A stretch of DNA of 64,000 nt from an uncultured archaeon (GCA_000965745.1 CP009479.1:1152001-1216000), one strand, 5' to 3'; shown: positions 1,564 through 37,174, counted from the stretch's first letter. Made by a program: numbers and translations. Notes: generated by a model from the letters alone, not told the origin.

Positions 1564-1691
1564 AAAAGTACTGCCTTTCATCGGGGGAATGCACATCCGC
1601 CCAATGGTTTTGCTTCGTGCCCGGCGAGGAGCCTTGGCTGCAACCCAACAAAAACTACAGGGGTATGAGGAGGGAGCTGCAAAAGAAGGGA

Positions 1692-1772
1692 ACATTGATA
1701 TCCCCGCGGGGCAATGTCATGAACGATGACGACCTTAAAACCCCACATGCTTTAGCCGTGGGTGCATGCCAG
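1692..1772 (+). mobile_element. Degenerate IS200/IS605-family end hairpin (orphan relic)
   Basis: aaccccacatgctttagccgtgggtgcatgccag (1739-1772) resembles the CCCACGGCTTTAGCCGTGGG-type subterminal palindrome. A second hairpin acattg-atat-ccccgcgggg-caatgt lies at 1692-1717. No transposase is present. Confidence 0.5.
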
Positions 1773-1870
1773 AGGAGAAATTATAGAAATTAGAAATTAA
1801 GGAAAAAAAGCACCTTAACCGTTTAAGCCCACGTTGAAGTAGTGGCACCTTCTGGAAATCATTTCCCCTA

Positions 1871-8835: not shown

Positions 8836-10916
8836 TGCCGGAGAAAAATCTGGATGTATCGGTTGAGGCTGGGGCAAGGTTCGCATTCTGTGTTCACTCC
8901 CACCAGCCTGCGGGGAACTCTCCTGATGTCCTGGAGAAGGTTTACGGGAAGTCCTATCTGCCTTTCTTTGAGAAGATGTATGAGCACCCGGGAATCATGT
9001 TAAACGCCCATTTCAGCGGTTATCTTCTCGAATGGCTTATAAAGATGCACCCGGAATATGTCGATATGCTGAAGGAAATGGTTTCCAGGGGACAGCTCGA
9101 AATCCTCGGAGGGGGAATATACGAACCAATTCTTGCGGCAGTTCCCCTGGATGATGCTGTAGGTCAGATAAAAGAGCTCAACAGCCTGGTGCTCAAAACG
9201 TTCGGAACCTATCCGGGTGGAATGTGGCTTGCAGAAAGGGTGTGGGAACCCCATCTGCCAGAGGTAATCAAGCAATCAGGGCTCACCTATACCCTTGTGG
9301 ATGATCTCGGCTTCATGAATGCAGGAATACCGAGAGAATCCCTCTCAGGTTATTACACGTCAGAGTTCAACGGGAGTGAGGTGGCCGTATTTCCGATAAA
9401 TCTCGAGATCCGCGACTCAATACCCTTCTCGGGATACATAAAGGCACTCAACAACATTGAGAGGGCTTCCACGAGAAATTCCGGCAAGCTGATCGTATTC
9501 GGAGACGACTGTGAAAAGTTTGGCTCATGGCCCGGCACCTATGAGGATGTATACAAGAAAAAATGGCTGGAGAGATTTCTGACAGGGCTGGAGAAGAGGA
9601 ATATAGAGACAGTGCACTTTTCCGACTACAAAGAGAGGGAAAGCACAACCGGAATGGTTTACCTGCCCACATGCTCCTATCCGGAGATGATGACCTGGGC
9701 CCTCGATCCGGCGGACCAGAAGAAGGCGGAATCGCTGATGAAGAAGAGGGGCATGGGGAAATCCCGGTTAATGCTGGGTGCCCACTGGAGGAACTTCCTG
9801 ACGAAATACAGCGAATCACTTCAGCTGTACAGGAAAATAAGGTTTGTCAGCGGTATGGTGCAGGAGGCCGGTGTCGATCACGAAGCTAGGATGCACCTGT
9901 ACAGGGGTGAGGCCAATGACGCCATGTGGCACGGAGTTTTTGGAGGCATATATCTTCCCCTGCTCAGGATGAAATCATACTCCAGCCTTATCCATGCCCA
10001 GAAGCTTGCTGAACACTCCCTGAGGAGAGTTGAATACTTCCGCCGGTTTGGCAGCGATCTGATGAGGAAGGATTCGTTCTGCATCTCAACTGGGGGCTTG
10101 TGGGTTTACGGAGGCGCCTCCCACGGCCTTGAAGTTGAGGAAATCGACCTCAAGGATGCAGCCCTTAACCTGACCGACTCTCTAACGAGAAGGGAGGAGG
10201 AATATCATGCCTCAATACAGCGGATACTGAAACGTGGGTCAAGGAAGAAGGGAAACATTGGCAAGGGTGTCTTTGTAAAGGATATAGGTGACATAAGCAG
10301 CCTGATCTACGATCACTCTCCAAGGAGGTCCTTCAAGGATCACTTTATAGGCACGGGGGAAGGGATTGAGGAACACATGGTTTCAGCTGACGAGGATCTG
10401 CACTTGCATTCGACATTCACAGAAATGGCCAACGAGGAGAGATTCTGGATATCCAGAAGTTATCGGGCTAATTTCAGGAATGCCAGTATTGGAATTGACA
10501 AGGAGATCTCGGTCAGGAAGAAATCAAACCAACTTACGGCGGCTTACCGGTTCTCCGGCATTTCTTCAGAGGGGGACACTTTGAGACTGGGCAGTGAGAT
10601 AAACCTTTCCGCATTCTCATCTGATTTTGACAGTATAACTGTCAACGGGAGGAGAATAGAGTCCCTGAAGGGGCGTGCGTTTGAAACCTCAACACTTGCA
10701 CTGGATTATCATGACCTGAATCTCAGGGTAGTTGTGGATGTATCGGGAAGCAAGCTCTTCTGGGTTTACCCAGTCGAAACAATAAGCAATTCTGAGGAAG
10801 GGCTGGAGACCATTCTTCAGGGAGTTTGCGTCATGCCGGTAACAGAACTGTCAGAGGGGGGGAGATTTGAAATATCGATCAAGGCCATGGACATCCCCGC
10901 AGAAAGGAGGTGGTAG
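8832..10916 (+). CDS. GH57 4-alpha-glucanotransferase/alpha-amylase
   Basis: HSHQP, GMWLAERVW (nucleophile E), GDDCEKFGSWPG (acid/base D), NDAMWHGVFGG. Confidence 0.9.
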   Translation: MMPEKNLDVSVEAGARFAFCVHSHQPAGNSPDVLEKVYGKSYLPFFEKMYEHPGIMLNAHFSGYLLEWLIKMHPEYVDMLKEMVSRGQLEILGGGIYEPILAAVPLDDAVGQIKELNSLVLKTFGTYPGGMWLAERVWEPHLPEVIKQSGLTYTLVDDLGFMNAGIPRESLSGYYTSEFNGSEVAVFPINLEIRDSIPFSGYIKALNNIERASTRNSGKLIVFGDDCEKFGSWPGTYEDVYKKKWLERFLTGLEKRNIETVHFSDYKERESTTGMVYLPTCSYPEMMTWALDPADQKKAESLMKKRGMGKSRLMLGAHWRNFLTKYSESLQLYRKIRFVSGMVQEAGVDHEARMHLYRGEANDAMWHGVFGGIYLPLLRMKSYSSLIHAQKLAEHSLRRVEYFRRFGSDLMRKDSFCISTGGLWVYGGASHGLEVEEIDLKDAALNLTDSLTRREEEYHASIQRILKRGSRKKGNIGKGVFVKDIGDISSLIYDHSPRRSFKDHFIGTGEGIEEHMVSADEDLHLHSTFTEMANEERFWISRSYRANFRNASIGIDKEISVRKKSNQLTAAYRFSGISSEGDTLRLGSEINLSAFSSDFDSITVNGRRIESLKGRAFETSTLALDYHDLNLRVVVDVSGSKLFWVYPVETISNSEEGLETILQGVCVMPVTELSEGGRFEISIKAMDIPAERRW

Positions 10917-10917
10917 C

Positions 10918-12702
10918 TTGATCTGGAGTTTCGGATCCAGGTATGTTTCAGAAAATGAAGCTGAATTCAAGGTTTGGCATCCATTCGACAGGGATATTGA
11001 ACTGAAACTTCTCACTTCGAAAAGAACGGTTCCTCTGGAGCAGGAAGATAATGGAATCCTGGCTGCCACTGCAAGAGTAGCCAGAAATGAGCTCTACATG
11101 TACAGGGTGGGCAACTCACTGTTTCCCGATCCGGCTTCCCACTACCAGCCTGATGGTGTGCATGGCCCTTCGATGGTCGTTGACCACTCATCTTATTCCT
11201 GGAGGAATGAGGGATGGAAAGGGCGTCCCATGGACGAGTACATACTGTATGAACTGCATGTTGGAACATTCGGTGAGAAGGGCACATACATGGATGTTTT
11301 GCCGAAGATAGATCATATCAGGAATCTGGGCATCACTGCAGTGGAACTGATGCCAATCAGCCAGTTTCCAGGTCGCAGAAACTGGGGGTATGACGGAGTG
11401 CAACTCTATTCCCCGCAGAACTCATACGGCGAAACCGGAGACCTGAAGAGACTGGTGGATACGTTTCATGGTGCAGGAATTGATGTTGTTCTTGATGTGG
11501 TCTACAACCACGTCGGCCCGGAGGGGAATTATCTTCCCATTTTCGGGCCATACTTCACAAAAAAATATTCGACCCCATGGGGGAAAGCGATCAACTATGA
11601 CGATTCGTATTCCGACATGGTAAGGAAGTTCATCGTTGAAAACGCACTTTACTGGCTTTCCGAATTCAGGTTTGACGGTCTGCGGCTGGATGCCATACAC
11701 GGCATATACGACTTCTCCCCAAGGCATATACTCGAAGAAATAGAGGACGCCGCGGAAGGACTGTCACAGGAAACCGGGAGGAATGTGAACATAATCGCGG
11801 AGAGTGACCTCAACGACCCCGTGCTCGTACAGAGCAAGGAAAGATGCGGCTTTGGGCTTGCCGGCCAGTGGAACGACGACTATCACCACGCCATTCACGC
11901 CTTCCTGACCGGGGAAAGAAATGGTTACTATTCAGATTTCGGCAGATTCGGGCAGATAACAAGGTCCTTGAAAAATGGCTTTGTTTATGACGGCGTCTAT
12001 TCGGAGTACAGGAAGAGGACCAGGGGGGCACCCCTCATGGCGGTTCCCCTGAACAGGCTTGTCGTCTACAGCCAGAACCATGATCAGGTTGGGAACAGGG
12101 CAGGGGCGGATCGCCTGACCTCACTGGTTGCAGTGGAGAAAGTTAAAGCTGCAGCATCCCTGGCCGTACTGTCCCCTTTCACACCCCTGATCTTCATGGG
12201 GGAGGAATACGGCGAAAATGCCCCCTTCAACTATTTCATTGACACAGGAGACAGGAAACTGGCACGTGCAGTAAGGGAAGGGAGGAGCAGGGAATTCATG
12301 AATTTCGGGATGAAGTACGACTTGGACCCCAACAATCCTGAAATGTTTGAGCAGTCGAAGCTGAAATGGGGGCGTATGGATACCAAATCAGGCAAGGCCA
12401 TGTTCAACTTCTACAGGGACCTTGCCAGTGTAAGAAAAACCATAGGAAAGAGAAGAATGGCTCTGCACAGCGTATCTTCCCCGGCAGAAAATCTGATACG
12501 CATATCGTATGGAAAGGATGAAAAACTTGACGTCTTCATCTCCCTCTCCAATGGAAAAATCAGCCTTGAGGGGATTGTCCCCCAAGGCAGCAAGGTCCTG
12601 TTCAGGTCCGGATGGAGGGACTACGGTGGCACTCTGGAACCATCCGGGCAAACAGCAGTTGAGATTGAGCCTTTCGAATCAATCGTTTCATCGCCGCCAT
12701 GA
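10918..12702 (+). CDS. treZ: Malto-oligosyltrehalose trehalohydrolase (GH13)
   Basis: FPDPASHYQPDGVHGPS, RNWGYDG, GLRLDAIH, IAESD, QNHDQVGNR. Start placed at TTG 10918 after the GGAGGTGG RBS. Confidence 0.95.
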   Translation: MIWSFGSRYVSENEAEFKVWHPFDRDIELKLLTSKRTVPLEQEDNGILAATARVARNELYMYRVGNSLFPDPASHYQPDGVHGPSMVVDHSSYSWRNEGWKGRPMDEYILYELHVGTFGEKGTYMDVLPKIDHIRNLGITAVELMPISQFPGRRNWGYDGVQLYSPQNSYGETGDLKRLVDTFHGAGIDVVLDVVYNHVGPEGNYLPIFGPYFTKKYSTPWGKAINYDDSYSDMVRKFIVENALYWLSEFRFDGLRLDAIHGIYDFSPRHILEEIEDAAEGLSQETGRNVNIIAESDLNDPVLVQSKERCGFGLAGQWNDDYHHAIHAFLTGERNGYYSDFGRFGQITRSLKNGFVYDGVYSEYRKRTRGAPLMAVPLNRLVVYSQNHDQVGNRAGADRLTSLVAVEKVKAAASLAVLSPFTPLIFMGEEYGENAPFNYFIDTGDRKLARAVREGRSREFMNFGMKYDLDPNNPEMFEQSKLKWGRMDTKSGKAMFNFYRDLASVRKTIGKRRMALHSVSSPAENLIRISYGKDEKLDVFISLSNGKISLEGIVPQGSKVLFRSGWRDYGGTLEPSGQTAVEIEPFESIVSSPP

Positions 12703-25881: not shown

Positions 25882-25980
25882 CTGTCAGATTTTGTCTTAT
25901 AAATATTCTCGATGCAAATTCCGTCCGGAAACCCTTCAGACCCGATATCTATTATGTATCCCGGGCATAACAGTTCAAAG

Positions 25981-27057
25981 ATGTGCAATCCGGATACCAC
26001 CCACAGGATATACTTTGAAAAGTCTCACGAAATGAAACAGCTTGAGGACGAATCTGTGGACCTGGTGGTCACTTCTCCACCGTACCCTATGATCTCAATG
26101 TGGGACGACCTTTTCACTTCCATGAGCCCGGAAATCGGTCTGCAACTTAACACCGAAAACGGATGGATCGCATTTGACATGATGCACACTGAACTCGATA
26201 AGACATGGGGCGAACTGTACAGGGTTATGAGGAACGGCGGGCTTGTCTGCATTAATGTCGGAGATGCCACCAGGAAGGTGGGGAATGAGTTTGCTCTATA
26301 TTCATCACACAGCAGGATAACAGAACTGATGCTGCAGCATGGCTTTCATGCCCTCACAGGCATATTGTGGAGAAAGCCTACCAACTCCCCGAACAAGTTC
26401 ATGGGGTCCGGAATGCTCCCAGCGGGAGCCTACATAACTCTTGAACATGAACATATCCTCGTCTTCAGGAAGGGCGGGAAGAGGGTGTTCGCCACCGAGA
26501 AGGAAAGGGAGAACAGGCGCAAGAGCTCATATTTCTGGGAGGAAAGGAACAGGTGGTTTTCAGATATATGGCAGGACCTAAAGGGTGCAAGCCAGATCCT
26601 TGACCCGGAAGGGCCAAGGAAGAGAAGCGCTGCATTCCCCATCGAATTGCCGTTCAGGCTCATAAACATGTTTTCAGTGAAGGGTGACACAGTTCTCGAT
26701 CCCTTCCTCGGTACCGGAACCACGTCGGTTGCTGCCCTGATGTCGCAGAGATGCAGCATTGGGTATGAAATGGATGAAAAACTATCCGGGATTATACACG
26801 AGAGAATTACAAATTCAGGAAGCATTTCAAACGCGTATCTTATGGACAGGGTCCTGAAGCACAGGGAATTTGTCAGTAACCAGCAGGAACTCGGGAAACA
26901 GTTCAAATATCACAACGACCACCTCGGAGTGCCTGTGAAAGAACGTTCCGAACAGTACATTGAGCTGAACCTTGTCAAAAAAGTCTCACCGATTGAGCCG
27001 GGAAGGCACTATACGACAATTTACGAGCCTGTCAAGCCTCTTCCGGGGAGACGGTGA
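25981..27057 (+). CDS. Site-specific DNA methyltransferase (beta class N4-C/N6-A), orphan
   Basis: Motif IV VVTSPPY near the N-terminus; motif I VLDPFLGTGTT near the C-terminus; no adjacent endonuclease. Confidence 0.9.
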   Translation: MCNPDTTHRIYFEKSHEMKQLEDESVDLVVTSPPYPMISMWDDLFTSMSPEIGLQLNTENGWIAFDMMHTELDKTWGELYRVMRNGGLVCINVGDATRKVGNEFALYSSHSRITELMLQHGFHALTGILWRKPTNSPNKFMGSGMLPAGAYITLEHEHILVFRKGGKRVFATEKERENRRKSSYFWEERNRWFSDIWQDLKGASQILDPEGPRKRSAAFPIELPFRLINMFSVKGDTVLDPFLGTGTTSVAALMSQRCSIGYEMDEKLSGIIHERITNSGSISNAYLMDRVLKHREFVSNQQELGKQFKYHNDHLGVPVKERSEQYIELNLVKKVSPIEPGRHYTTIYEPVKPLPGRR

Positions 27058-29123: not shown

Positions 29124-29200
29124 TTAAACCTCTTGTCCGGTCATTTTTATGGGTCATTTCGGTAAAAATTCATTTTTGTTATCCAAAAATTTCCAAAATA

Positions 29201-29285
29201 TGCGAGGGATGGGATTCGAACCCACGAACTCCTACGAGACAGAATCTTAAGTCCTGCACAGTTGGCCAGGCTTTGTTACCCTCGC
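29201..29285 (-). tRNA. tRNA-Leu(TAA)
   Basis: GCGAGGGTAACAAAGCCTGGCCAACTGTGCAGGACTTAAGATTCTGTCTCGTAGGAGTTCGTGGGTTCGAATCCCATCCCTCGCA; TAA anticodon, long variable arm, TTCGAAT T-loop. Confidence 0.97.
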
Positions 29286-29310
29286 AATCAATCGGTTTAT
29301 ACTCCGGGAA

Positions 29311-29320
29311 TATATTAAAA
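29311..29320 (-). promoter_or_regulatory. TATA box of tRNA-Leu promoter
   Basis: TTTTAATATA ~26-35 nt upstream of the tRNA 5' end; identical in copy C. Confidence 0.6.
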
Positions 29321-29411
29321 GTGCTGAAATTCGACGAATTAGGGAAAGGTGTCCTGTCTTGAGAATTGATTGTGGGAGAACACTGGGTTAACCCGACTTG
29401 AAAGATTTTCA

Positions 29412-29449
29412 TGTAATACGAGTATATACAGGTATATACACGTATTACA
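29412..29449. repeat. 38-bp near-perfect palindrome
   Basis: tgtaatacg-a-gtatatac-ag-gtatatac-a-cgtattaca. Confidence 0.9.
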
Positions 29450-29645
29450 AATCAGATAACGAATTTGTATGGAGATTTCTCGATAATTTGTCCAACATCA
29501 GAAAATAACGGTTTAAATGTTGATTGTGAACTATTATTCATAGCAATGAACAGCCAAAGAAAGAGACAGAGGAACAGGCAGCCATAAGGAAAGAGATCAG
29601 GATAATTTAGAGAAATAATTGCAGTAATTTTATTCATAAAGGGAT

Positions 29646-30107
29646 TTATGCCTTAATACCTTCTTTCATGGTTATCATGTCATGTAGGACAACACTCATG
29701 ATTCCTGCCACAAATGTTCCTATACCTATTACGAACATGCCCGACAGGAAACCAGAGGGAACAGTCCAATGGAGACCCGGGTAGTATTCAAAAGTTGAAG
29801 TTAGAAAGTCCATAGAATTCAAGATAAAGGCAGATGCCGTCAGAATAAGTCCAATAACGGCGATAATGAATATTCTTCCTTTTGGCTGATAACCTAATCC
29901 AAATGCAAGCAAGACTGAGGCACCAGTTGAAATTCCTCCAGGTATATTTGCTAAAATTCGATTATATGTGTTCAAATTGGAAAGCGAAGGGTTATTCACA
30001 AGCCAAAGTTGAATTATTTCAGCTACTATTTCTGCAGCGAGAAAAATTACTATTGAAGATATCAGGAACACCCTTGATTGCTCTAGTGTAATCCCTTTGC
30101 TTTTCAT
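29646..30107 (-). CDS. Hypothetical membrane protein (4 TM), island cargo
   Basis: Hydrophobic helices; own AT-rich promoter at ~30120-30135. Confidence 0.75.
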   Translation of the reverse strand: MKSKGITLEQSRVFLISSIVIFLAAEIVAEIIQLWLVNNPSLSNLNTYNRILANIPGGISTGASVLLAFGLGYQPKGRIFIIAVIGLILTASAFILNSMDFLTSTFEYYPGLHWTVPSGFLSGMFVIGIGTFVAGIMSVVLHDMITMKEGIKA

Positions 30108-30151
30108 ATTATAATTATCCTATATAACTATAAAATTATTGTCCAGTCCTA

Positions 30152-30226
30152 GAAAATAATGGTTTAAATGCAGATTGTGAATTATTATTCATGGCAAAGG
30201 GACAGTCTAAGAAAGAAAAGTGGTAG
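30152..30226 (+). repeat. Module copy B: promoter motif plus truncated MAKGQSKKEKW* gene start
   Basis: gaaaataatggtttaaatgcagattgtgaattattattcATGGCAAAG. Confidence 0.8.
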
Positions 30227-30315
30227 TTTGAAAAACATTATGCACAATTGAGCGCCATAATGTGAGTCATATAGTTATTCATAATTATTATATACAACAA
30301 TAGAATGTTTGGTGC

Positions 30316-30501
30316 ATGGTGCAAACTACCATCCAGGTGTCCAAGGAGACCAGAGAGAAGCTCAAGAAGATAGGTGGCAAAGGCCAGACTTACGATGAAA
30401 TAATTGAAAAGCTTCTTGAGATCGGTCAGAAAGTAGCATTTTTCAACGAACTTGACAGGATTTCTGATAGCGAGGAGTTCATACCTCTTGACGAACTATA
30501 A
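30316..30501 (+). CDS. Antitoxin (RHH-like), partner of RelE
   Basis: TTIQVSKETREKLKKIG-KGQTYDEIIEKLL; acidic C-terminus; overlaps the toxin start. Confidence 0.8.
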   Translation: MVQTTIQVSKETREKLKKIGGKGQTYDEIIEKLLEIGQKVAFFNELDRISDSEEFIPLDEL

Positions 30502-30766
30502 AGTTCTAGTTTCCCAGACCGCAGCCAAAGAACTGAGGGTTTTAGAGAAGAGTCTGCAGGACCGGATAAAGGAAAGACTGAGGGGACTGTCAAAAGATCC
30601 TATTAATAGTACTGGAAGATTGGACGTAAAAAAGCTTTCAGGAACTGGAAGAAATTACAGCAGGCTTATGGTAGGGGACTACAGAGTTATATTTTTCGTG
30701 GATGGTATGAAAATCAAAGTTGTAAGGATAGCTAAGAGATCTGATGTCTATTCTTGGCTGGATTAG
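30488..30766 (+). CDS. relE: RelE/ParE family toxin
   Basis: YKVLVSQTAAKEL...KKLSG...RLMVGDYRVIF...IAKRSDVY; TTG start after GAGGAG. Confidence 0.88.
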   Translation: MTNYKVLVSQTAAKELRVLEKSLQDRIKERLRGLSKDPINSTGRLDVKKLSGTGRNYSRLMVGDYRVIFFVDGMKIKVVRIAKRSDVYSWLD

Positions 30767-30829
30767 TGCATGGCTGCCATCAATCGAAAATCTTAATAGA
30801 CTATCTGGTTTAACTAGGGTTGAGCTAGT

Positions 30830-31090
30830 TTGACACTGAAGTTGAAAGTTGGAAAAAAAGGTTACGTGATTCTTCCTAAGGCGCTACGAGAAGCTGTTGG
30901 AATCGAAGAAGGAGATGATCTGACAGTGAGTGTTAACGATGGGATTACATTGACACCTTCCAAGAAGTTCGACAAATCTGCATTCGAGAAAATCGCAGAA
31001 AAACACAAAGATACAATTCTCTCATTGAAGGATGCAAAAGCCCCAGAACCGGGTGAAGCCAAAAAATACTCCTTGGAGGATGAATTTTGA
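30830..31090 (+). CDS. vapB: AbrB/MazE-type antitoxin (VapB)
   Basis: LKVGKKGYVILPKALREAVGIEEGD. Confidence 0.9.
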   Translation: MTLKLKVGKKGYVILPKALREAVGIEEGDDLTVSVNDGITLTPSKKFDKSAFEKIAEKHKDTILSLKDAKAPEPGEAKKYSLEDEF

Positions 31091-31491
31091 CTGGCGTGTT
31101 CATAGATACTAACTTCTTTATTTACATGAACACACCAACGAAAACTCTGGACAGATTCATAGAGCACTATGAGGTAGAACTATCCAATAACAGAACCTTC
31201 ACCAATATGATAGTTCTGGATGAGCTCATTTATGTTTCCAAGAAGAAATATTCCATCCCTGTTGAAGTGACTCTTGAATTTATTGATTCCATGATACTTC
31301 CGTTCACTTCTATATTACCACTTGAGGAAAATGATTATCACGTATTGAAAGACATGATAAACTATTGCCCCAAACCGAGTGACGCATTGATTGCCTCTTC
31401 CATGAAACGCAATTCTATCATGGACATCCTTAGTGAAGACAACGACTTTGACAAGGTTCCTGGGATTAACAGGAGATGGTTGGCCCTCTGA
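31087..31491 (+). CDS. vapC: PIN-domain toxin VapC
   Basis: FIDTN, LDELIY, SDALIA and SEDNDFD acidic tetrad; 4-bp overlap with vapB. Confidence 0.9.
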   Translation: MTGVFIDTNFFIYMNTPTKTLDRFIEHYEVELSNNRTFTNMIVLDELIYVSKKKYSIPVEVTLEFIDSMILPFTSILPLEENDYHVLKDMINYCPKPSDALIASSMKRNSIMDILSEDNDFDKVPGINRRWLAL

Positions 31492-31516
31492 GAAGGTACA
31501 TTACAGGTCCCATTAA

Positions 31517-31860
31517 AGTTGGCCAGGCTTTGTTACCCTCGCAATCAATCGGTTTATACTCCGGGAATATATTAAAAGTGCTGAAATTCGTTGAATTAGG
31601 GAAAAGTGTCCTGTCTTGAGAATTGGATGCGGGAGAATACTGGATTAAATGGAGATGTAATTTTTTTTTCTGTAATATACGTATATATCTGTATTACAAA
31701 TCAAGTTAGGAATTTTTATGAGGACTTCTCAATAATTTGACCAACCCAGTGAAACAACGGTTTAAATATTGATTGTGAACTATCACACATGGCAAAAGAC
31801 AAGCCTGAAAAGAAGGAAACGGAAGATCAACAGAAGTTGAGACAAGAGATTAGAAAGTTA
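31517..31860 (+). repeat. Direct repeat copy C; begins with the displaced tRNA-Leu 5' fragment (31517-31542, minus strand)
   Basis: agttggccaggctttgttaccctcgc equals tRNA nt 1-26; followed by the same promoter, dyad (31671-31698) and promoter motif. Confidence 0.95.
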
Positions 31861-31992
31861 TGGAGCGATATTGAGCCTCAACTGATTACCATGGCCCACA
31901 AACTCGAAGATGCAGGTTGCATTGAAAACAAGGACTATATCTGGCTCAAGTCAAGAATCTCGAATTTGTCCAAACATTTCGATAAACAGTAA
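31789..31992 (+). CDS. Small helical hypothetical protein (67 aa); intact member of the repeated module
   Basis: Leaderless-type TATA (tttaaat) ~22 nt upstream; degenerate homologous starts at 29540, 30191 and 35928. Confidence 0.7.
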   Translation: MAKDKPEKKETEDQQKLRQEIRKLWSDIEPQLITMAHKLEDAGCIENKDYIWLKSRISNLSKHFDKQ

Positions 31993-32004
31993 TTTTTTCG
32001 TGCA

Positions 32005-32994
32005 TCAATGTGGCACCTTAATTGAAAAGTGAAATCTCGTTCTCATCGGGCCACTCAGGCTTCCGATTGTTACGACTGCAAAGGTGATAATTAAAAGTAT
32101 GTAAAGAAATAGAGAAACCGGGCCGAAAAGTGATATATGATCAGATAAGTTTATTGTTGCAAGTGTAAATACTGCGGTTGGGAATACGTAGCTCCACCAC
32201 CCTATATGAAACTTCAGGCCATTGTGAATATATTTACCTATCAAGAGAAGGTTGACAAAGGCAGCCCACATGCCAAACCCCCAAAGGCTTATCCCTGAGA
32301 TTGTAGCAAGTGTTGTGAGATCGGAACCAAAGAATTGCCCAATGTGGGCGGCTATCTGATATATGTCTACAATCAGAATGCCAATTGGGGCAAGCATAAT
32401 GTAATTTGTAGGGGCAAGTTCGACAGGTGGCAGATCATGACTCAACAGTCTGAAGAATAGCACTACAAGAATGAGCAGAAATAACATGGAACCGATGCCG
32501 AAAAATAAAAGTGATACCAAAGTGCTAATCTCGCTTATTGGGTAGAGGAGAATCGCATCAGTCACCAAAATTGTAGCGACTGGCGTTATGAACCATCCAC
32601 CATGAAGTTGTGAGAAACTCACGTTCATATTTGAGAAGAAATGGTATGGTAGATAGACTGATAAAGCCAGTATGAACACTCCCCCATAGACAAGCATCCC
32701 AATATCTATACCAGGAGGGAAAATGTGCATGCACAACATGGAAATGATCACAGAAGAAATTGGGTGCAGGGCATAGAAATTCCCAGGAAGGGGATGCTGC
32801 AACTCACTGCGGACAATTGCAGGGTATCTTATGACCTTGGCTATGAGTATTCCGGTAAAAATAAAGAATACAACAACCAGGAGCAAGGTCATTGGGAAAA
32901 CAATAGTAGGGGCAAATTGCTTTGAGGCAAGTATCAAGCCTCCTGTTCCAAGTATGGAACCAAAGACGGACACGGAGAAATCCTTCAGGATCAT
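32005..32994 (-). CDS. TDT/SLAC1 family transporter (TehA/Mae1-like)
   Basis: FGSILGTGGL, ELQHP, GWFITPVA, APIG, GWWSYVFP. Confidence 0.88.
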   Translation of the reverse strand: MILKDFSVSVFGSILGTGGLILASKQFAPTIVFPMTLLLVVVFFIFTGILIAKVIRYPAIVRSELQHPLPGNFYALHPISSVIISMLCMHIFPPGIDIGMLVYGGVFILALSVYLPYHFFSNMNVSFSQLHGGWFITPVATILVTDAILLYPISEISTLVSLLFFGIGSMLFLLILVVLFFRLLSHDLPPVELAPTNYIMLAPIGILIVDIYQIAAHIGQFFGSDLTTLATISGISLWGFGMWAAFVNLLLIGKYIHNGLKFHIGWWSYVFPTAVFTLATINLSDHISLFGPVSLFLYILLIITFAVVTIGSLSGPMRTRFHFSIKVPH

Positions 32995-34046
32995 GGGGTA
33001 TGCCTCAAGACTGGAGAAAATGTGAATAATTTCTTTATTCCCTTCTCTAAGTGTATGTACACAATTGCCAGTACTGGCTGTATCATGGGAATCACTGCGG
33101 GGGCCAAAGCTGCCGCCGGGTTTAAAGCAAAAACAGCAATGACTGCTGCAACACTCTGGTTCTTCGTCACCGAGATGAATGCAATCGCCTGGTGATCTTC
33201 ATAGGAGAAGTGCATCAACCTGCTCACAAGGATTGATAATGCGAGTATGCCCAGTATGATTGCAGACTGGTATCCTATGAGGTATCCCACTATCTGAGGC
33301 ATGGATATGATAACGGATGCCTCCTTGTCCACCAGGACGAATATGAGAGCTAACATGGACATCATTGTTGTCAATGACAGGTATTTTCTTGAAGTCTTGT
33401 TGACTGTCACAGCCCCTCTCCACCTTATCAGGAGATATCGAGTGATCTGGCCTGCTATGAGAGGAAGTATGAGGATATAAACAACTGACATCATTATGGG
33501 CTCAACTGGAATGGAAGTAGATGCCTGGCTGCTATAAAGCCCAAGAATTAAAGGTATGGCTGGGATGGAAACTACCAGGCTCACAATTGCGAGAGCCGTT
33601 GCCAATTCAATGCTCCCACCTGCTATTAGAACGTAGCCAAGGGATGCACTTGATGCCGGCACGATATTGGAAACTACAAACCCAGTTCCAATTGAAGTGC
33701 CCATGGTTGGGCCAATGATGAATGCAATGAGAGGAGAGAGGGCGAATACATAAACAAGTGATACCACGATTGGTTTCCATGACCTCAGTTCTTTGGCGAA
33801 TCCCTCAGTCTTAAGCTGTATCATGGAAGGGTAGATTGTCATTATCGCAAAGAGAATGACGAGGTCTGAAAACAGCCCCTTGTTAATCACAGTGAATTGC
33901 CTTGTATAATACCCGACAGGTATGGCCACACTGACTGAGAGGAGTGTATAAACGATCAGATATTTCCTGATGTGCTCAGACAAAGTTCCAATTATCCCGT
34001 TTGGCCTTGATTTTGTTAGGGAACTCCTTTTCCCATCGCTTTCCAT
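32991..34046 (-). CDS. Acr3-like / bile acid:sodium symporter (BART) family transporter
   Basis: TIYPSMIQL, ILPLIAGQITR, TKNQSVAAVIA; 10 TM; downstream of arsR. Confidence 0.8.
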   Translation of the reverse strand: MESDGKRSSLTKSRPNGIIGTLSEHIRKYLIVYTLLSVSVAIPVGYYTRQFTVINKGLFSDLVILFAIMTIYPSMIQLKTEGFAKELRSWKPIVVSLVYVFALSPLIAFIIGPTMGTSIGTGFVVSNIVPASSASLGYVLIAGGSIELATALAIVSLVVSIPAIPLILGLYSSQASTSIPVEPIMMSVVYILILPLIAGQITRYLLIRWRGAVTVNKTSRKYLSLTTMMSMLALIFVLVDKEASVIISMPQIVGYLIGYQSAIILGILALSILVSRLMHFSYEDHQAIAFISVTKNQSVAAVIAVFALNPAAALAPAVIPMIQPVLAIVYIHLEKGIKKLFTFSPVLRHTP

Positions 34047-34048
34047 CT

Positions 34049-34426
34049 CTATCGCCTGGTGTCGTCAACTCTTGTGCCAACAGGTTGCGAAGTTGAAACA
34101 GCATAGCCCTGGTTTTTAAGGATATCACTGATAAGCTGCTTGTATTTTGGATTGATAAAATAATAGCTATATTTCCACACCTCCTTGTGCTTGAGGAGAC
34201 CAATATCATACATCTTTCTCAAATGTGTGGTAATTGTGGGCTGTGGTAACCCTAGTGCAGGCTGAAGTTCACATGCACAGACTTCATTGTGTCTCTCCAT
34301 TATGGCCAGTATCGCAACTCTAGTCTTGTTTCCCAGAACATTGAGAACTCTGGATATCTCGTAGTATCTATCGACATCCTGAGCTTCGATTTCTTTAATT
34401 TCACATGATTCTTTGTCGTCAGACAT
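34049..34426 (-). CDS. arsR: ArsR/SmtB family regulator
   Basis: LGNKTRVAIL...EVCACEL...QPTITTHL (CxC metalloid site). Confidence 0.9.
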   Translation of the reverse strand: MSDDKESCEIKEIEAQDVDRYYEISRVLNVLGNKTRVAILAIMERHNEVCACELQPALGLPQPTITTHLRKMYDIGLLKHKEVWKYSYYFINPKYKQLISDILKNQGYAVSTSQPVGTRVDDTRR

Positions 34427-34498
34427 CTCACATCACTTTCTACAAGTCCAGTCAGTTAAAGGTAACTTATTGGCACTATATTTCCTACACACGCAAGA

Positions 34499-34527
34499 AT
34501 CACAATGTCATATTAATATATTGTGAT
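34499..34527. promoter_or_regulatory. Putative ArsR operator
   Basis: atcacaat-N13-attgtgat perfect 8-bp inverted repeat over an AT-rich promoter upstream of arsR. Confidence 0.55.
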
Positions 34528-34556
34528 ATGATAACCTTACAAAATTAAATTCAACC

Positions 34557-34616
34557 ATATACGCAACGAAATGGCTATCTCACTGACTACAGACCGGATA
34601 CATTTACAGAGAATAA
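34557..34616 (+). pseudogene. Possible tyrosine-integrase C-terminal relic
   Basis: Translates as IYATKWLSH*LQTGYIY, reminiscent of the LGH...TT..Y box II; ~100 bp upstream of a tRNA att fragment. Confidence 0.3.
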
Positions 34617-34718
34617 GCTGTGTTTTATAGCCAACTTTTTGAATCAATCCGATAACACCTTGCCATGTCATAGTAGTTGGATAAATCAATCAGAAATGCT
34701 TCCAGAAGAAAGTCGAAT

Positions 34719-34758
34719 TCTTAATCCATAGGTCGGGGGTTCGAACCCCTCGGACCCG
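34719..34758 (+). pseudogene. tRNA-Lys(CTT) 3'-half fragment (att-site relic)
   Basis: TCTTAATCCATAGGTCGGGGGTTCGAACCCCTCGGACCCG runs from the anticodon loop through T-arm to acceptor 3' strand; no 5' half. Confidence 0.8.
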
Positions 34759-35026
34759 CTATATCTCTGGTTACTTCTGTGAGCATTTTCAATAGTCAAT
34801 TTGTGGTGTGGAGTGGAAACTAATTCCTCTTTCAATTTGCTTTGGGGAGTAAATCAGGATTGAACCAGTTTGAAAGTAATTGTTTTAATAATTTTACATA
34901 AAACTAAATAAAGTGGCAGGCCCATTTGTATGGAGAGGTCGTATTAGTTTATCCAACATGGATAATATATAGCCTCAATAATAATATTGGCAATAAATTT
35001 AAAAGCTGTCATTTACTAAATTTGGT

Positions 35027-35788
35027 ATGAGGAGACAAAAATTAGTTGCCCTTGTTGTCTCAGTTGCATTGACATCTTCCCTTGGACTTTACATAGCTTA
35101 TGATTTAGGGCAGAATTCATCATCACATAAAGAAAACCTTCAGGCAATCTTCTATGAGCAAGGTTTGCCAAAAGGTGACTACTGGAGCGTAACAATTCAT
35201 CCCTACGATTCTCCTTCTAACATAACGACTCTGTCTACCAACTCTACCAAAATAGTCTTTGACAATCTCAGGGCCAGTACATACAACTATTCATTTTCAC
35301 AGATAAATGGAGACTTGATACTCAGTTATGGTGGAATAAATACAAGTTTTGGGGTTGTTGGCACACAAAGCGGATCTATATGGGTTGGCACGAAGCTAAT
35401 CCCCGCTTTCCCTGATGGGAAAATCACAGCTGTAAATACTGTTTACACATTAGGAGTGTACTATCCAAAAGTCATAGCAAATGATGTTGGAGTTTATCTC
35501 AACGATAACGGGACGCTCTACAATCTCACAAGATCTGAAAATTCCATAGTGTATCTTATCAATTCTTCGTTTACTTACATAGTTGATTCAAATTTTAACG
35601 GAATTCTTTTTGGAAATGAGTACCGGATCAACAGTATAGGAACGAACAATTCTGAATATGGGAACATCTTCAAAACAAACCCTGGTACACCCATTGTTAA
35701 CTCTATGTCGAACAACCTTACGTTTACAGTAAACCTGACTTCTCTTCCTCATGTGGGCTATTACTCGGTAGTTATGTACGGCTATTGA
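35027..35788 (+). CDS. Membrane-anchored surface glycoprotein with F-x-E-x-GLP-x-G-x-x-WSV domain
   Basis: N-terminal anchor; FYEQGLPKGDYWSVTI motif common in thermoacidophile surface proteins; many NxS/T sites. Confidence 0.8.
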   Translation: MRRQKLVALVVSVALTSSLGLYIAYDLGQNSSSHKENLQAIFYEQGLPKGDYWSVTIHPYDSPSNITTLSTNSTKIVFDNLRASTYNYSFSQINGDLILSYGGINTSFGVVGTQSGSIWVGTKLIPAFPDGKITAVNTVYTLGVYYPKVIANDVGVYLNDNGTLYNLTRSENSIVYLINSSFTYIVDSNFNGILFGNEYRINSIGTNNSEYGNIFKTNPGTPIVNSMSNNLTFTVNLTSLPHVGYYSVVMYGY

Positions 35789-35888
35789 GGATGCGTCAGG
35801 AATTTGCATACGAGATGGTTGCTTATTAATAGTACAGAGCTGCCAGTAAAAGGGTAGAAAGAACGAACAAAATGACTGTCGTATCCAT

Positions 35889-35935
35889 GAAAATAACGGT
35901 TTAAATAACAATTGTGAATTATTAGTCACGGTAAA
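35889..35935 (+). repeat. Module copy D: promoter motif with start decayed to ACG
   Basis: gaaaataacggtttaaataacaattgtgaattattagtcACGgtaaa. Confidence 0.75.
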
Positions 35936-36098
35936 AATGCAGCGTAAATCCAGAAGGATTGAGCAGTACTGGTAAAAGCGTGTTCTTTCTCAAAATTAAT
36001 TTAAGTATCTTGTTAGCTATCACCGTACGAGCACATTCAAAGATTCGCTGAAGAAGCCGTCTGAATCTTTACATCTGGATGTGAGAAGAGGCATAAAC

Positions 36099-36242
36099 AT
36101 GAATTTCAGGTTCTCGTTAATGGGTATAATTTTCTGGGGCTTAAGCGCATTTCTCTTTGTTTACCGTGGCTACCATCCGAACTTCTTTATCCCGCTTGTA
36201 GTTGGAACCGTCATATTCCTTTATGGAGTGTTTGGCAGATAA
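36099..36242 (+). CDS. Small 2-TM protein (47 aa), not in ORF track
   Basis: MNFRFSLMGIIFWGLSAFLFVYRGYHPNFFIPLVVGTVIFLYGVFGR; purine-rich RBS-like sequence upstream. Confidence 0.5.
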   Translation: MNFRFSLMGIIFWGLSAFLFVYRGYHPNFFIPLVVGTVIFLYGVFGR

Positions 36243-36363
36243 CCCCACAGGTTCCAAACTGACATTTTTATGTAATCTTGGAATGGAGTTTTCCAGTTTC
36301 AATGCACGCATAAAGATTCTGCGGTTTGGAAATAATTATATCAGGACACAGGGTTCAGACAGT

Positions 36364-36975
36364 ATGTTCGAACCGGTAGCCAAGAATATTTTCAGATGGG
36401 GGACCATTGATGGTGAAACAGGAGTAATGATGTATTCACACTTACTCCTCAAAGATGGAAAGGCAGTTCTAATCGATCCGCTTGCAATGCCGGGCCTTAA
36501 TCGAATGATACAGATTTTGGGTAAACCAGAGGCCGTAGTCATGACCGTATATCCACATTTACGTGGATGCTCCTTAATTTCCAGGCAGCTAAACATCCCT
36601 CTGTTTATCCCTGATATTAAAGTGGTCGAGGAAGATGAGACAGTCACAAGAATGTTCATTGATTTATATGACATGAAACACGGGCAGCAGTACAATGAAT
36701 CAACAGAACTCCCGCTTGGAATACGGGCCCACAATATCGCTGGCCGTCATGAAATGGCTCTGAAGTTTGATGATTACTTGATAGTTGGTGATTCCGCTTA
36801 TGGAATTAATGGTCAACTCAATTTCTATCCAAGCGGAATTTGGCCAGATGATTCGAGCAGCAAGGCACGTGCCACTTCAGACGCTTTGATACCGTTGATA
36901 AGAAAAACTGGAGCTAAAGGACTCCTGTCGGGGCATATGGAAGACATTCCTTCAGGACTTCAGGAAATGGTATAA
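36364..36975 (+). CDS. Metallo-beta-lactamase-like fold protein
   Basis: AVLIDP, degenerate T-x-x-x-H-x-RG, IVGD and LSGH motifs; start placed at ATG 36364. Confidence 0.7.
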   Translation: MFEPVAKNIFRWGTIDGETGVMMYSHLLLKDGKAVLIDPLAMPGLNRMIQILGKPEAVVMTVYPHLRGCSLISRQLNIPLFIPDIKVVEEDETVTRMFIDLYDMKHGQQYNESTELPLGIRAHNIAGRHEMALKFDDYLIVGDSAYGINGQLNFYPSGIWPDDSSSKARATSDALIPLIRKTGAKGLLSGHMEDIPSGLQEMV

Positions 36976-37174
36976 ATCCAATCCCCCATTTGCCCGTTCT
37001 GACAGAAATTTCAGCCGTGCACAGTCTGTCAAGTTCCGTCACCCCTGCAATTCGGTTTACACTCCTGCACTGTATTATAAGGGCTGAAATTTGAGAATGG
37101 ACGCCTGAAAAATAATTTCGTTTTATCAAGCTCATGGCGCCACAAGTTAAGTATGGAATCTTTATGATACTTCA

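Follow-up and report, generated by a model that had tools for sequence, protein, structure and literature searches.

Promoter modules in a tRNA-Leu island of a soil archaeon as probable left ends of worn tRNA-targeting elements

Four copies of a short module stand in the same orientation, with unrelated genes between them, in a window of 64,000 nt from an uncultured archaeon (GCA_000965745.1, CP009479.1:1152001-1216000). This locus raises the question of whether the module is a recombination site by which genes are captured or the end of elements that were inserted one after another. We consider it highly probable that the island is a stack of worn integrase-less remnants and that the modules are the left-end promoters of tRNA-targeting elements of soil Thermoplasmata archaea. 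Stacked worn element remnants at a tRNA gene are an already known kind of structure. The anatomy and distribution of the module, one complete and two further integrase-bearing elements and a differing unit order in a congener were observed directly.

Module copies, tRNA-derived sites and cargo of the island

Applying a repeat search to the window we found that the four copies form one direct repeat family with units of 67 nt, which are 69-78% identical to the reference copy (Table 1). The core pattern GGTTTAAATNNNNATTGTGAAYTAT has exactly four matches in the window, all on the plus strand, compared to 0.00 expected from 100 shuffles. The first-pass annotation had described four direct copies, a start codon 38-39 nt downstream of each motif (ATA, ATG, ATG and ACG), a full ORF at copy C alone and unrelated cargo between the copies (a membrane protein; two toxin-antitoxin pairs; an ars-like gene set, an att relic and a surface protein, in fact an ORFan with a signal-like N-terminus), and all of this was confirmed. 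It had also named the array the best candidate for an undescribed system in the window, with an unfamiliar motif; the motif is an ordinary archaeal BRE/TATA with a leaderless start. The module as a whole measures ~70-100 nt and is composed of an upstream box, ATTTGTCCAAC, the BRE/TATA, AAATAACGGTTTAAAT, a spacer of ~21 nt and the start of a gene that we call MAK. Its TATA begins 27-28 nt before the ATG, within the genome-wide peak at -30 to -26, and the 11-nt box shows no genome-wide enrichment. The module would be the conserved left-end promoter and gene start of small tRNA-targeting elements, with promoter activity being putative.

Table 1. Features of the window island and of the complete relative L041
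Feature	Coordinates	Strand	Basis or remark
tRNA-Leu(TAA)	29200-29286	-	ARAGORN; Rfam tRNA, 46.8 bits
P' arm copy 1	29287-29480	.	repeats D2 and D5; 43-nt block 29292-29334; dyad 29412-29449
Module A and decayed MAK remnant	29481-29602 (module 29481-29547)	+	start mutated to ATA (29540); repeats
Membrane protein, 153 aa, no Pfam family	29646-30107	-	directly upstream of and divergent from module B
Module B	30132-30219 (repeat 30132-30198)	+	ATG 30191; 11 MAK-like codons, then TAG; repeats, profile match
RHH (DUF7557/VapB-like) antitoxin and ParE toxin	30316-30766	+	Pfam PF24434, PF05016
AbrB/MazE-type antitoxin and PIN toxin (VapBC)	30830-31491	+	Pfam PF04014, PF01850
tRNA-Leu(TAA) copy, first ~27 nt	31517-31543	-	att core relic between two accreted units
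P' arm copy 2	31544-31729	.	putative tRNA-promoter block 31549-31591; dyad 31671-31698
Module C	31730-31796	+	ATG 31789; only window copy still joined to an intact gene
MAK gene	31789-31992	+	67 aa; conserved; predicted two-helix hairpin
Ars-like cargo block, overall	32005-34426	-	the three genes below
SLAC1/TDT channel	32005-32994	-	Pfam
SBF/ACR3-like carrier	32991-34046	-	Pfam
ArsR regulator	34049-34426	-	Pfam
P arm (integrase-proximal attP arm)	34633-34722	+	alignment; nhmmer; inverted repeat I2
tRNA-Lys(CTT) 3' fragment (att core)	34719-34760	+	85.5% identical to genome 78643-78718
Lys-type P' arm	34761-34959	+	repeats D4 and D6
ORFan, 253 aa, N-terminal hydrophobic signal-like segment	35027-35788	+	between Lys-type P' arm and module D
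Module D	35864-35951 (repeat 35869-35935)	+	start-codon position ACG (35928)
Protein of 257 aa, no Pfam family	36202-36975	+	last cargo gene
Diverged tRNA-Leu 5' ~49 nt and promoter block	37001-37098	-	73.5% identical to 29238-29339; repeat D5
L041 tRNA-Leu(TAG)	1333-1420		
L041 module	1593-1692		
L041 MAK	1665-1868		
L041 integrase	9716-10681		PF16795 at 7e-44; phrog_5127 at 3e-52
L041 P arm	10807-10897		
L041 tRNA 5'-half repeat, 41-42 nt	10892-10933		

Copy A keeps roughly the first 20-25 MAK codons, out of frame, and in its region nhmmer aligned model positions 2-312 to window positions 29288-29602. Module B is a solo copy with no tRNA fragment adjoining, and at module D just a few recognisable bases of the MAK coding start are left. 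Copies A and C sit in a longer repeat of ~320 nt (29260-29576 versus 31517-31829, 80%), which opens with the 5' part of tRNA-Leu. Outside the coding part, modules of different genera are 56-65% identical. The gene behind copy C has 46 homologues with 66-83% identity and occurs in 13 of 101 family genomes; because pN is 0.11-0.21 against a saturated pS of 0.82-0.94, MAK is, by its substitution pattern, a real gene. Its AlphaFold model reaches a pLDDT of 87, and the protein has no match in Pfam, PHROG, PDB or Atlas.

The island spans 29287-37098, and the intact tRNA-Leu(TAA) gene beside it, with its 5' end toward the island, is both the integration target and the reconstituted gene of the attL side. 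Direct repeats of part of this target accompany the intact gene in the window, at 31517-31543 and at about 37001-37050, and the diverged copy at 37001-37098 is read as an old attR relic and the distal edge of the island. Within P' arm copy 1 the 43-nt block has a TATA-like TATATTAAAA lying 25-34 nt before the 5' end of the tRNA; in L041 the same block comes after the att core on both the attL and the attR side, and it is a putative element-supplied tRNA promoter. The dyad of this arm has 18-nt arms that are 94% complementary. In sites of the Lys, Leu(TAG) and Leu(TAA) types alike, conservation of the P arm extends to the very edge of the anticodon loop, and in seven arrays the arm lies at a constant ~200-210 nt from the module. 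In an inverted-repeat search the module box recurred inverted in the P arm as GTTGGATAAAT; its position and this one matched variant make it a candidate arm site. The tRNA-Lys(CTT) 3' fragment is flanked by conserved element arms, with the genuine gene located elsewhere in the genome, and at the end of the Lys-type P' arm (34921-34959) stands the upstream portion of the module, including the box GTTTATCCAAC. The first-pass annotation had overlooked the ~320-nt repeat of A and C, the old tRNA fragment at about 37001-37098 and the tRNA-Lys(CTT) nature of its att relic. A tRNA-Lys-type attP-like site within a tRNA-Leu island needs an extra recombination event to be explained.

Among the cargo genes, homologues of the membrane protein (36-37% identical) were found in only two of 100 family genomes and lack an adjoining module, and none of the 253-aa ORFan was found in 100 family genomes. 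The AbrB/PIN pair is also found behind a module in G009 and G016, and conserved counterparts of the 257-aa protein lie in the G092 island and at the distal end of that of G009. No PF00589 or PF16795 match was found in the window island, and there is no recombinase in or beside the array. The genome has no intact integrase of the element's family and holds only two fragments related to the L041 integrase (326076-326402 and 2070959-2071273). Since the island lacks an integrase, the window holds remnants and not an autonomous member; at least three such remnants, none with an integrase, have accreted at tRNA-Leu(TAA) to form the island. Across modules B, C and D, contigs from soil metagenomes agree with the reference arrangement; one putative back-joint was found among them and no circle was demonstrated.

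Integrase-bearing relatives, distribution and proposed origin

A complete relative of 9.5 kb was found on the metagenome contig L041, in the order tRNA-Leu (attL), P' arm, module leading into MAK, cargo, integrase on the opposite strand, P arm and tRNA 5'-half repeat (attR). It is bounded by the tRNA-Leu 5'-half repeats and contains a single module, a layout from which it follows that the crossover site is the tRNA anticodon-loop core. The integrase is a single ORF of 321 aa that starts ~210 nt from the att core, matches PDB chains 3UXU/3VCF/4DKS at about 1e-11 and resembles SSV1 Int in the catalytic domain only. The tyrosine integrase, which is absent from the island, was found in two further members: G042:C91 contains tRNA-Lys, module, a frameshifted integrase, P arm and a 37-nt tRNA-Lys repeat, and G030:C5 contains an integrase 82% identical to that of L041, followed by a P arm and a Leu core. 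Integrase, module and MAK in one fully intact element were observed in one case only, and no PF16795 integrases lie near MAK loci in complete or near-complete genomes of relatives.

A scan of the 2.23-Mb genome with a nucleotide HMM of the module gave eight copies, which are confined to three tRNA-linked islands: the four of the window, two beside tRNA-Leu(TAG) and two in a tRNA-Lys-fragment array. Modules occur in 37 of 101 family genomes, with up to eight per genome in same-orientation arrays, and this patchy distribution tracks the MAK gene and the att arms. That the module could be a host promoter or regulon motif of several unrelated chromosomal genes, as its good archaeal BRE/TATA consensus and a spacing like that of the genome's other leaderless genes might suggest, is effectively refuted by this copy count and family distribution. 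About 15 of the 38 modules examined are followed by VapBC, ParDE or a similar pair. The cargo varies between relatives: in the congener G009 the same units are found in a different order, with breakpoints at the edges of shared segments, and the ACR3-ArsR-P arm block takes a different place in the array. Between genomes, homologous units align from one att core to the next. The identity of island units is 76-85% between species or genera, and 80-85% for those shared by different genera, compared to 66.5% for the core flank within the genus; units shared between genera above the identity of core DNA require transfer and insertion. The module-ParDE block of module B is 80% identical to G074:C10 of another genus, with a different upstream neighbour. 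Several points of the first-pass annotation were borne out: the locus is an accretion hotspot, the module represents the conserved end of elements that were inserted in series, and neither a generic promoter nor an invariant cargo, the two conditions it had named as refuting, was found.

A complete element of this kind would consist of the intact tRNA (attL), P' arm, module, MAK, variable cargo, an opposite-strand integrase, P arm and the displaced tRNA fragment (attR), and in the circular form integrase and MAK would be transcribed divergently across attP. The recombination core would be the anticodon loop with either the tRNA-Leu 5' half, read in reverse, or the tRNA-Lys 3' half; in the Leu type the P' arm would supply a replacement tRNA 5' half and probably a replacement promoter. 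In many units a VapBC or ParDE operon stands in the place of MAK. The window island was probably built by repeated site-specific insertion at tRNA-Leu(TAA), followed by integrase loss, internal deletions and recombination between the shared module, P arm and P' arm. Toxin-antitoxin pairs probably hold the remnants in place, and integrase-less units may be mobilised in trans. Archaeal mobile elements are known to integrate in tandem, to lose their integrases and to exchange modules by homologous recombination (review PMC8371274). Not every copy is explained by simple tandem integration, since B and D, like many modules in relatives, stand solo, with neither a tRNA fragment nor a P arm adjoining.

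Alternative origins of the arrays

We regard it as unlikely that recombination takes place at the module itself, or at its upstream half with the box, and that circles of one or two genes were captured there into an integron-like array anchored at the tRNA. Solo modules do bracket single cargo genes: in the window the membrane protein lies between A and B, and relatives have glyoxalase, methyltransferase and hydrolase genes in such a position. The changed neighbour of the module-ParDE block and the inverted box in the P arm point the same way. However, the methyltransferase and glyoxalase genes found there in different genomes are homologous, and several of these 'insertions' are thus one inherited architecture. 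In two cases (window 34921-34959 with 35864; L033 8516-8561 with 9544) a partial upstream module copy flanks an insert of ~0.9-1.0 kb, but a comparison by eye puts the similarity of the flanking parts at only ~70-75% in L033, and those of the window hardly resemble each other, so that neither pair looks like a fresh target duplication. The complete element has one module and tRNA-derived repeats as its bounds, the module edges are scattered in alignments (left ends at model positions 2-30, right ends at 47-104) and no recombinase gene adjoins any array. The gene-capture hotspot of the first-pass annotation, which offered the module as a handle or as an element end, is supported for the element end and not for an integron- or dif-like handle. 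One observation speaks for the handle: breakpoints recur at the left edge of the module, often with a gene directly upstream that differs from case to case, and the module may therefore act as a substrate in homologous recombination or as a binding site of the arm type.

An origin of the arrays mainly by homologous recombination and local duplication among repeats of ~100-300 nt, with modules as substrates or scars and no repeated site-specific insertions, appears very unlikely. Copies A and C do lie within the ~320-nt repeat, the unit order of G009 changes at the edges of shared segments and modules are exchanged by homologous recombination among tandem elements (review PMC8371274). But A and C are only 78-89% identical in the repeat search and so do not stem from a duplication that was both local and recent. 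Junctions of P arm, core and P' arm are frequent and have exactly the form that integration into an occupied site would produce, and units are shared by different genera at an identity above that of core DNA.

Comparison with known systems

The accretion of element remnants proposed here has its closest counterparts in archaeal tRNA elements, for which 'gene capture' (She et al. 2001-2004) and tandem integration (Krupovic et al. 2010, 2019; reviewed in PMC8371274) have been described. As there, insertion of a tyrosine-integrase element into a tRNA gene duplicates part of the tRNA as a direct repeat, several elements accumulate at one locus, the integrases disappear while cargo is kept, and shared modules recombine. 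The difference is that the host is a soil Thermoplasmata archaeon, that the units, of about 0.7-3 kb, are very small, carry no integrase in most cases and often consist of a toxin-antitoxin pair alone, and that a promoter module of ~100 nt and the 67-aa MAK mark the left end across tRNA targets. For pTN3-like integrases of Thermococcales attB is the tRNA 5' half, and the recombinant tRNA needs an element-borne promoter (Cossu et al. 2017, PMC5495485; PMC8371274). The same attB half and a putative element-borne promoter are seen here, although on the MAK side (P' arm) and not on the integrase side, and the present family also uses the tRNA-Lys 3' half. The pTN3 type is 'suicidal', with attP inside int, which is split on integration, whereas the L041 int is intact; an SSV-type element with int(N)/int(C) halves was likewise rejected.

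In the accretion of CIMEs and ICEs (ICESt1/ICESt3, Streptococcus thermophilus), att-bounded integrase-less units lie in tandem with, or at the site of, integrase-bearing relatives, and such units could be mobilised in cis or in trans. The array has this character, since its units share homologous P arm, core and P' arm sequences with L041 and it has no integrase. These units, however, belong to an archaeon, have cores from the anticodon loop of tRNA genes and stand in no conjugation context, and their mobilisation is hypothetical. In pdif modules, which depend on XerCD in Acinetobacter plasmids, inverted XerC/XerD pairs of 28 bp bound small cargo blocks. Small blocks between repeated short sites are common to both, but the repeats here are direct, about 70-400 nt long and composed of promoter and att arms, with no Xer involvement indicated. 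With integrons, including superintegrons rich in toxin-antitoxin pairs, the island shares a one-orientation stack of small units of one or two genes, many of them toxin-antitoxin pairs, and a unit order that varies between relatives. An IntI/attI/Pc platform was not found, with no integrase gene at either array end, and attC sites, which are imperfect inverted repeats that form hairpins, do not fit a direct repeat with promoter anatomy; no inverted repeats within or spanning module copies were listed at >=20 nt (27-39 kb) or >=10 nt (around A and C), and Rfam gave nothing beyond tRNA. Unlike promoterless cassettes each unit opens with a BRE/TATA, and unlike in integrons the units are bounded by tRNA-derived cores flanked by long arms.

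The module as a probable promoter and its occurrence

A repeat search recovered the four module copies described in the first-pass annotation as a single family of 67-nt direct repeats, located at 29481, 30132, 31730 and 35869 (modules A–D). Their core pattern, GGTTTAAATNNNNATTGTGAAYTAT, has exactly four matches in the window, always on the plus strand, where shuffled sequences are expected to give none. The aligned copies carry ATA, ATG, ATG and ACG at the start-codon position and a complete ORF (31789-31992, 67 aa, here termed MAK) lies behind copy C only, both as had been claimed, while gene and family annotation bore out the cargo listed between the copies, namely a membrane protein, toxin–antitoxin pairs, an ars-like set and a surface ORFan.

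The anatomy of the module is that of an archaeal promoter of a leaderless mRNA, with a purine-rich BRE and a TATA element (AAATAACGGTTTAAAT) starting 27-28 nt ahead of the ATG; TTTA[AT]A hexamers ahead of long ORFs in the same genome have their maximum at -30 to -26. Aligning 18 copies out of 11 genomes, we found conservation in four blocks, namely a box on the upstream side (ATTTGTCCAAC), the BRE/TATA itself, a TATA-to-start block (ATTGTGAAYTAT) and the opening codons (ATGGCAAAAGAAAAG). A 5-4-5 palindrome (TGAAT-TATT-ATTCA) between TATA and ATG was rejected as an operator, as it is present in several copies and absent from the intact copy C. An inverted repeat of 10-11 nt, TCGCAATCAAT / ATTGATTGTGA (29282-29292 / 29520-29529 and 31539-31549 / 31768-31778), pairs the tRNA 5'-end junction with the TATA-to-start block in copies A and C; elements of the Leu(TAG) or Lys type showed no clear counterpart. 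That the module is merely a generic promoter can be dismissed: the exact pattern matches six times in the 2.23-Mb genome, and a module HMM found only eight copies, four in the window, two in the tRNA-Leu(TAG) region and two in a region with tRNA-Lys fragments.

Features of the window island, the source genome, the congener G009 and the complete element on metagenome contig L041
Location	Feature	Position	Strand	Remarks
Window	tRNA-Leu(TAA)	29200-29286	minus	5' end toward island
Window	~320-nt repeat, part 1			first ~27 nt of tRNA-Leu(TAA)
Window	~320-nt repeat, part 2			43-nt block, TATA-like element 25-34 nt upstream of tRNA 5' end
Window	~320-nt repeat, part 3 (dyad)	29412-29449; 31671-31698		copy A; copy C
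Window	~320-nt repeat, part 4			module
Window	cargo between modules			153-aa membrane protein
Window	cargo			RHH/ParE pair and AbrB/PIN pair
Window	cargo			SLAC1, SBF/ACR3-like carrier, ArsR
Window	cargo			253-aa ORFan
Window	cargo			257-aa protein, no Pfam family
Window	conserved ~90-nt arm, then tRNA-Lys(CTT) 3' 42 nt	34633-34760
Window	module upstream part	34921-34959		~200 nt past tRNA-Lys fragment; ORFan gene, then module D next
Window	third, more diverged copy of tRNA 5' ~49 nt and promoter block	about 37001-37098
Genome	two module copies	1596.9 and 1599.2 kb	minus	adjoin tRNA-Leu(TAG) at 1600504
Genome	two module copies	328.8 and 332.1 kb		region has three tRNA-Lys 3' fragments
G009 array	1st			tRNA, P' arm without module
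G009 array	2nd			ACR3-like and ArsR, P arm
G009 array	3rd			43-nt tRNA fragment, P' arm, module, VapBC
G009 array	4th			30-nt tRNA fragment, P' arm, module, MAK pseudogene
L041	tRNA-Leu(TAG)	1333-1420	minus
L041	module	1593-1692
L041	MAK	1665-1868
L041	unrelated cargo, about 7.8 kb			between MAK and integrase
L041	integrase, 321 aa	9716-10681	opposite to MAK/module
L041	conserved arm (P arm)	10807-10897
L041	41-42-nt repeat of tRNA 5' half	10892-10933		reaches anticodon loop

Among the 101 sampled family genomes the module model matches 37, with a maximum of 8 copies per genome. The copies form same-orientation arrays with spacings of 0.7-3.5 kb, adjoining tRNA-Leu(TAA), Leu(TAG), Lys(CTT), Val(GAC) or Glu(CTC) genes, or junctions of the P arm (the integrase-side att arm) with a tRNA-derived core. 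Of the ~38 modules examined, about 15 have a two-gene toxin–antitoxin operon directly behind them; at least three VapBC/PIN families are represented among these operons, as is ParDE, and RHH-MazF is also among the cargo. Some other modules have MAK next, and directly upstream there is often an opposite-strand gene (SAM methyltransferases, glyoxalase-family proteins, a hydrolase, the window membrane protein).

A second array of the source genome, outside the window, lies at tRNA-Leu(TAG) (L006:1440-2920, genome 1599.1-1600.6 kb). It consists of the tRNA, a partial P' arm (the tRNA/module-side att arm), a reverse-strand RHH-MazF pair and a P arm, and then of the full 42-nt Leu core, a P' arm, a module and MAK as a pseudogene containing a single TAA; beyond it (on stretch L005) follow another module and a VapBC pair. 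Its first unit is without a module, and the homologous unit of the family genome G047 has one. At 312-333 kb, again outside the window, we observed three tRNA-Lys 3' fragments with arms, two modules, a C-terminal piece of MAK and an N-terminal piece (110 aa) of an integrase. The distance of about 235-250 kb to the true tRNA-Lys(CTT) gene (genome position 78610) suggests that this old array was moved by rearrangement.

MAK has 46 metagenomic homologues of 66-83% identity, is almost invariant in its C-terminal two-thirds and shows 0.11-0.21 non-synonymous differences per site, with synonymous sites saturated; it is a real gene. Its predicted structure is a confident two-helix hairpin (pLDDT 87), which among solved folds resembles generic helical hairpins only (E >= 0.7). 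Searches of MAK against Pfam, PHROG, PDB folds and Atlas gave no match, and nothing was found in viral contigs. MAK was detected in 13 of the 101 sampled genomes, many times as a pseudogene or N-terminal stump. A 378-aa gene located 3' of MAK in some relatives was rejected as a core gene of the element, as it is multi-copy in the source genome and may be an insertion-sequence gene.

A complete element and its attachment arms

Metagenome contig Ga0070737_10003220 (L041) carries the element complete, from tRNA-Leu(TAG) through module, MAK and cargo to an integrase and the repeated tRNA 5' half. The integrase, whose N-terminal domain is RHH/CcdA-like, gave E-values of 7e-44 against PF16795 and 3e-52 against phrog_5127, and its nearest solved chains are 3UXU, 3VCF and 4DKS (E about 1e-11, labelled 'Probable integrase'), which we take to be the catalytic domain of the SSV1 integrase. 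The gene is unbroken, with its start about 210 nt away from the core, and therefore its arrangement, unlike that of the SSV type, is not 'suicidal'. A complex prediction of this integrase with MAK scored 0.00, which counts neither for nor against.

Two family genomes contain related integrases. Contig G042:C91 has, besides tRNA-Lys and a module, an integrase gene that is frameshifted (67% identical), together with the P arm and a tRNA-Lys repeat of 37 nt, while on G030:C5 an integrase 82% identical to that of L041 is followed by a P arm and Leu core. In the former (L058:5560-5720) the BRE/TATA string AACGGTTTAAATA, the same as in the module, precedes the integrase gene as well, so that the divergent genes on either side of attP may share a promoter design. 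The source genome has no intact integrase of the element family and only two fragments of one. None of the PF00589 integrases of the source genome and five relatives lies near MAK loci, and the PF16795 integrases of the relatives are located elsewhere in the genome or on other contigs.

In an alignment of P arms the conservation runs up to the anticodon loop whichever core type follows: for tRNA-Lys(CTT) this core is the 3' half, and for tRNA-Leu(TAA) and tRNA-Leu(TAG) it is the 5' half as reverse complement. The three core types are alike in their loop regions (CTCTTAATCC, TCTTAAGTCC, CCTAAATCC), and this likeness would offer a simple reason for the use of both kinds of site by one element family. 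The module is the end of the P' arm. Its distance from the P arm is 198-209 nt in seven arrays, and the P arm contains an inverted copy of the module's upstream box, which matches at 10 of 10 positions at the tRNA-Leu(TAG) site and at 13 of 15 at the Lys-type site of the window, where one variant is common to both arms (TTTATCC / GGATAAA). This suggests putative arm-type binding sites; the 11-mer box shows no genome-wide enrichment, so that this reading remains an inference.

Modules A and C each form the far end of a ~320-nt repeat, whose two copies (29260-29576 and 31517-31829) are 80% identical and include the tRNA start and its upstream promoter block. A Leu-type insertion would displace the tRNA 5' half together with the native promoter. 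Since the native promoter is taken along and the TATA block is conserved, the working tRNA-Leu is probably transcribed from a promoter in the P' arm; the Leu-type element thus appears to supply a replacement tRNA promoter. A single family targets tRNA-Lys at its 3' half and tRNA-Leu, read in reverse, at its 5' half. According to a 2021 review, 5'-half targeting is unique to pTN3-like integrases (PMC8371274), whereas here the tRNA-Leu 5' half is used by a non-suicidal integrase.

Proposed accretion and decay of the island

The window island is an inert, decayed stack of this new element family. In the best-supported account, family elements would integrate into tRNA-Leu(TAA) at its anticodon-loop core, every insertion placing a new P' arm, module and cargo beside the tRNA and shifting older units outward. 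Insertion at an already occupied site would create the observed P arm-core-P' junctions, integrases and other parts would later be lost, and recombination of shared segments would result in solo modules and in the tRNA-Lys-type site within the tRNA-Leu island. Archaeal elements are documented to integrate in tandem, to lose integrases and to exchange modules through homologous recombination (PMC8371274). The parts kept most often are toxin–antitoxin pairs behind the module promoter, which fits a putative stabilisation of post-segregational or addiction type. The closest bacterial parallel is the site-specific accretion of integrase-less CIMEs.

An alternative in which the module would act as a cassette attachment site in its own right keeps some probability. 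Two inserts have partial module copies on their flanks, but these copies are diverged from one another; solo module copies and the gene 'slot' directly upstream of the module also speak for it, whereas the complete element has one module and tRNA-derived boundaries, the alignment edges of the modules are scattered and no array has an adjoining recombinase. We consider it improbable that the module's upstream half (box ATTTGTCCAAC beside the BRE) is a second integrase-recognised attachment site, capturing small gene circles upstream or downstream of a ready promoter. If true, tRNA-anchored stacks would be an archaeal functional analogue of the integron platform, made of attP arms from an element with an SSV-like integrase.

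With accretion and decay of elements as the preferred reading, a repeat that once resembled an unknown cassette system now has an identity as the promoter end of an element. The family is previously undescribed and of a known kind, targeting tRNA genes in poorly studied soil Thermoplasmata. New here is what the promoter module is and how it connects to the att arms; also new are the MAK gene, a complete reference element with integrase and the targeting of the tRNA-Leu 5' half by a non-suicidal integrase. No current ideas are overturned. Integrase-less units, down to the size of att-promoter-toxin/antitoxin-att, are widespread in the family and occur across genera as shared units, and the ~100-nt promoter module and the conserved 67-aa protein provide markers for finding elements and testing regulation.

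Variation between genomes and strains

Comparing cargo order between relatives (the first-pass annotation had proposed this check between strains) revealed the same blocks in a different order at tRNA-Leu(TAA) of the congener G009. Between the source genome and G009 the island blocks are 76-85% identical and the core flank just 66.5%. At 328.6-329.6 kb the source genome has a P'-module-VapBC unit that shares 85% identity over 962 nt with a unit of G074, a genome of another genus, and the module B-ParDE block is 80% identical to a second G074 unit whose upstream neighbour is not the same. The RHH-MazF unit at tRNA-Leu(TAG) shows 79% identity, core to core, to units of G047 and G016, likewise between genera. 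For the membrane-protein cargo we found few homologues, none with an adjoining module, and for the surface ORFan no homologue in the family genome sample.

ArsR, the SBF/ACR3-like carrier and the SLAC1/TDT anion channel form one minus-strand block (window 32005-34426), of which the ACR3-like and ArsR part travels with the P arm as a unit; G009 has both beside the tRNA without SLAC1. On the core side of the tRNA, an N6/N4 DNA methylase (window 25912-27057) may itself be mobile, because homologues lie beside the MAK copies of the family genome G017 (L030 9965-10756) and in the G009 flank.

Strains were compared using assembled Logan contigs of soil metagenomes, which break at repeats. In near-identical soil strains from several studies, all contigs bridging modules B, C or D have the reference arrangement. 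In soil run X3, a contig connects position 35923 within module D backwards to 34719, where the tRNA-Lys core starts; this joint has only 33 nt on its shorter side and a depth of 46.6, against a main form at ~193. It may reflect a circular or tandem copy of the 1.2-kb unit, or else another arrangement belonging to a related organism. Contig L040 (OFHI01000425.1, 2104-6138), from a near-identical strain, is 99.1% identical to window 30765-32866 and diverges inside SLAC1, which is truncated to 265 aa; after it come an IS66-family transposase, then an HTH protein and a 284-aa ORF with weak similarity to an integrase-like region at 1502.8 kb.
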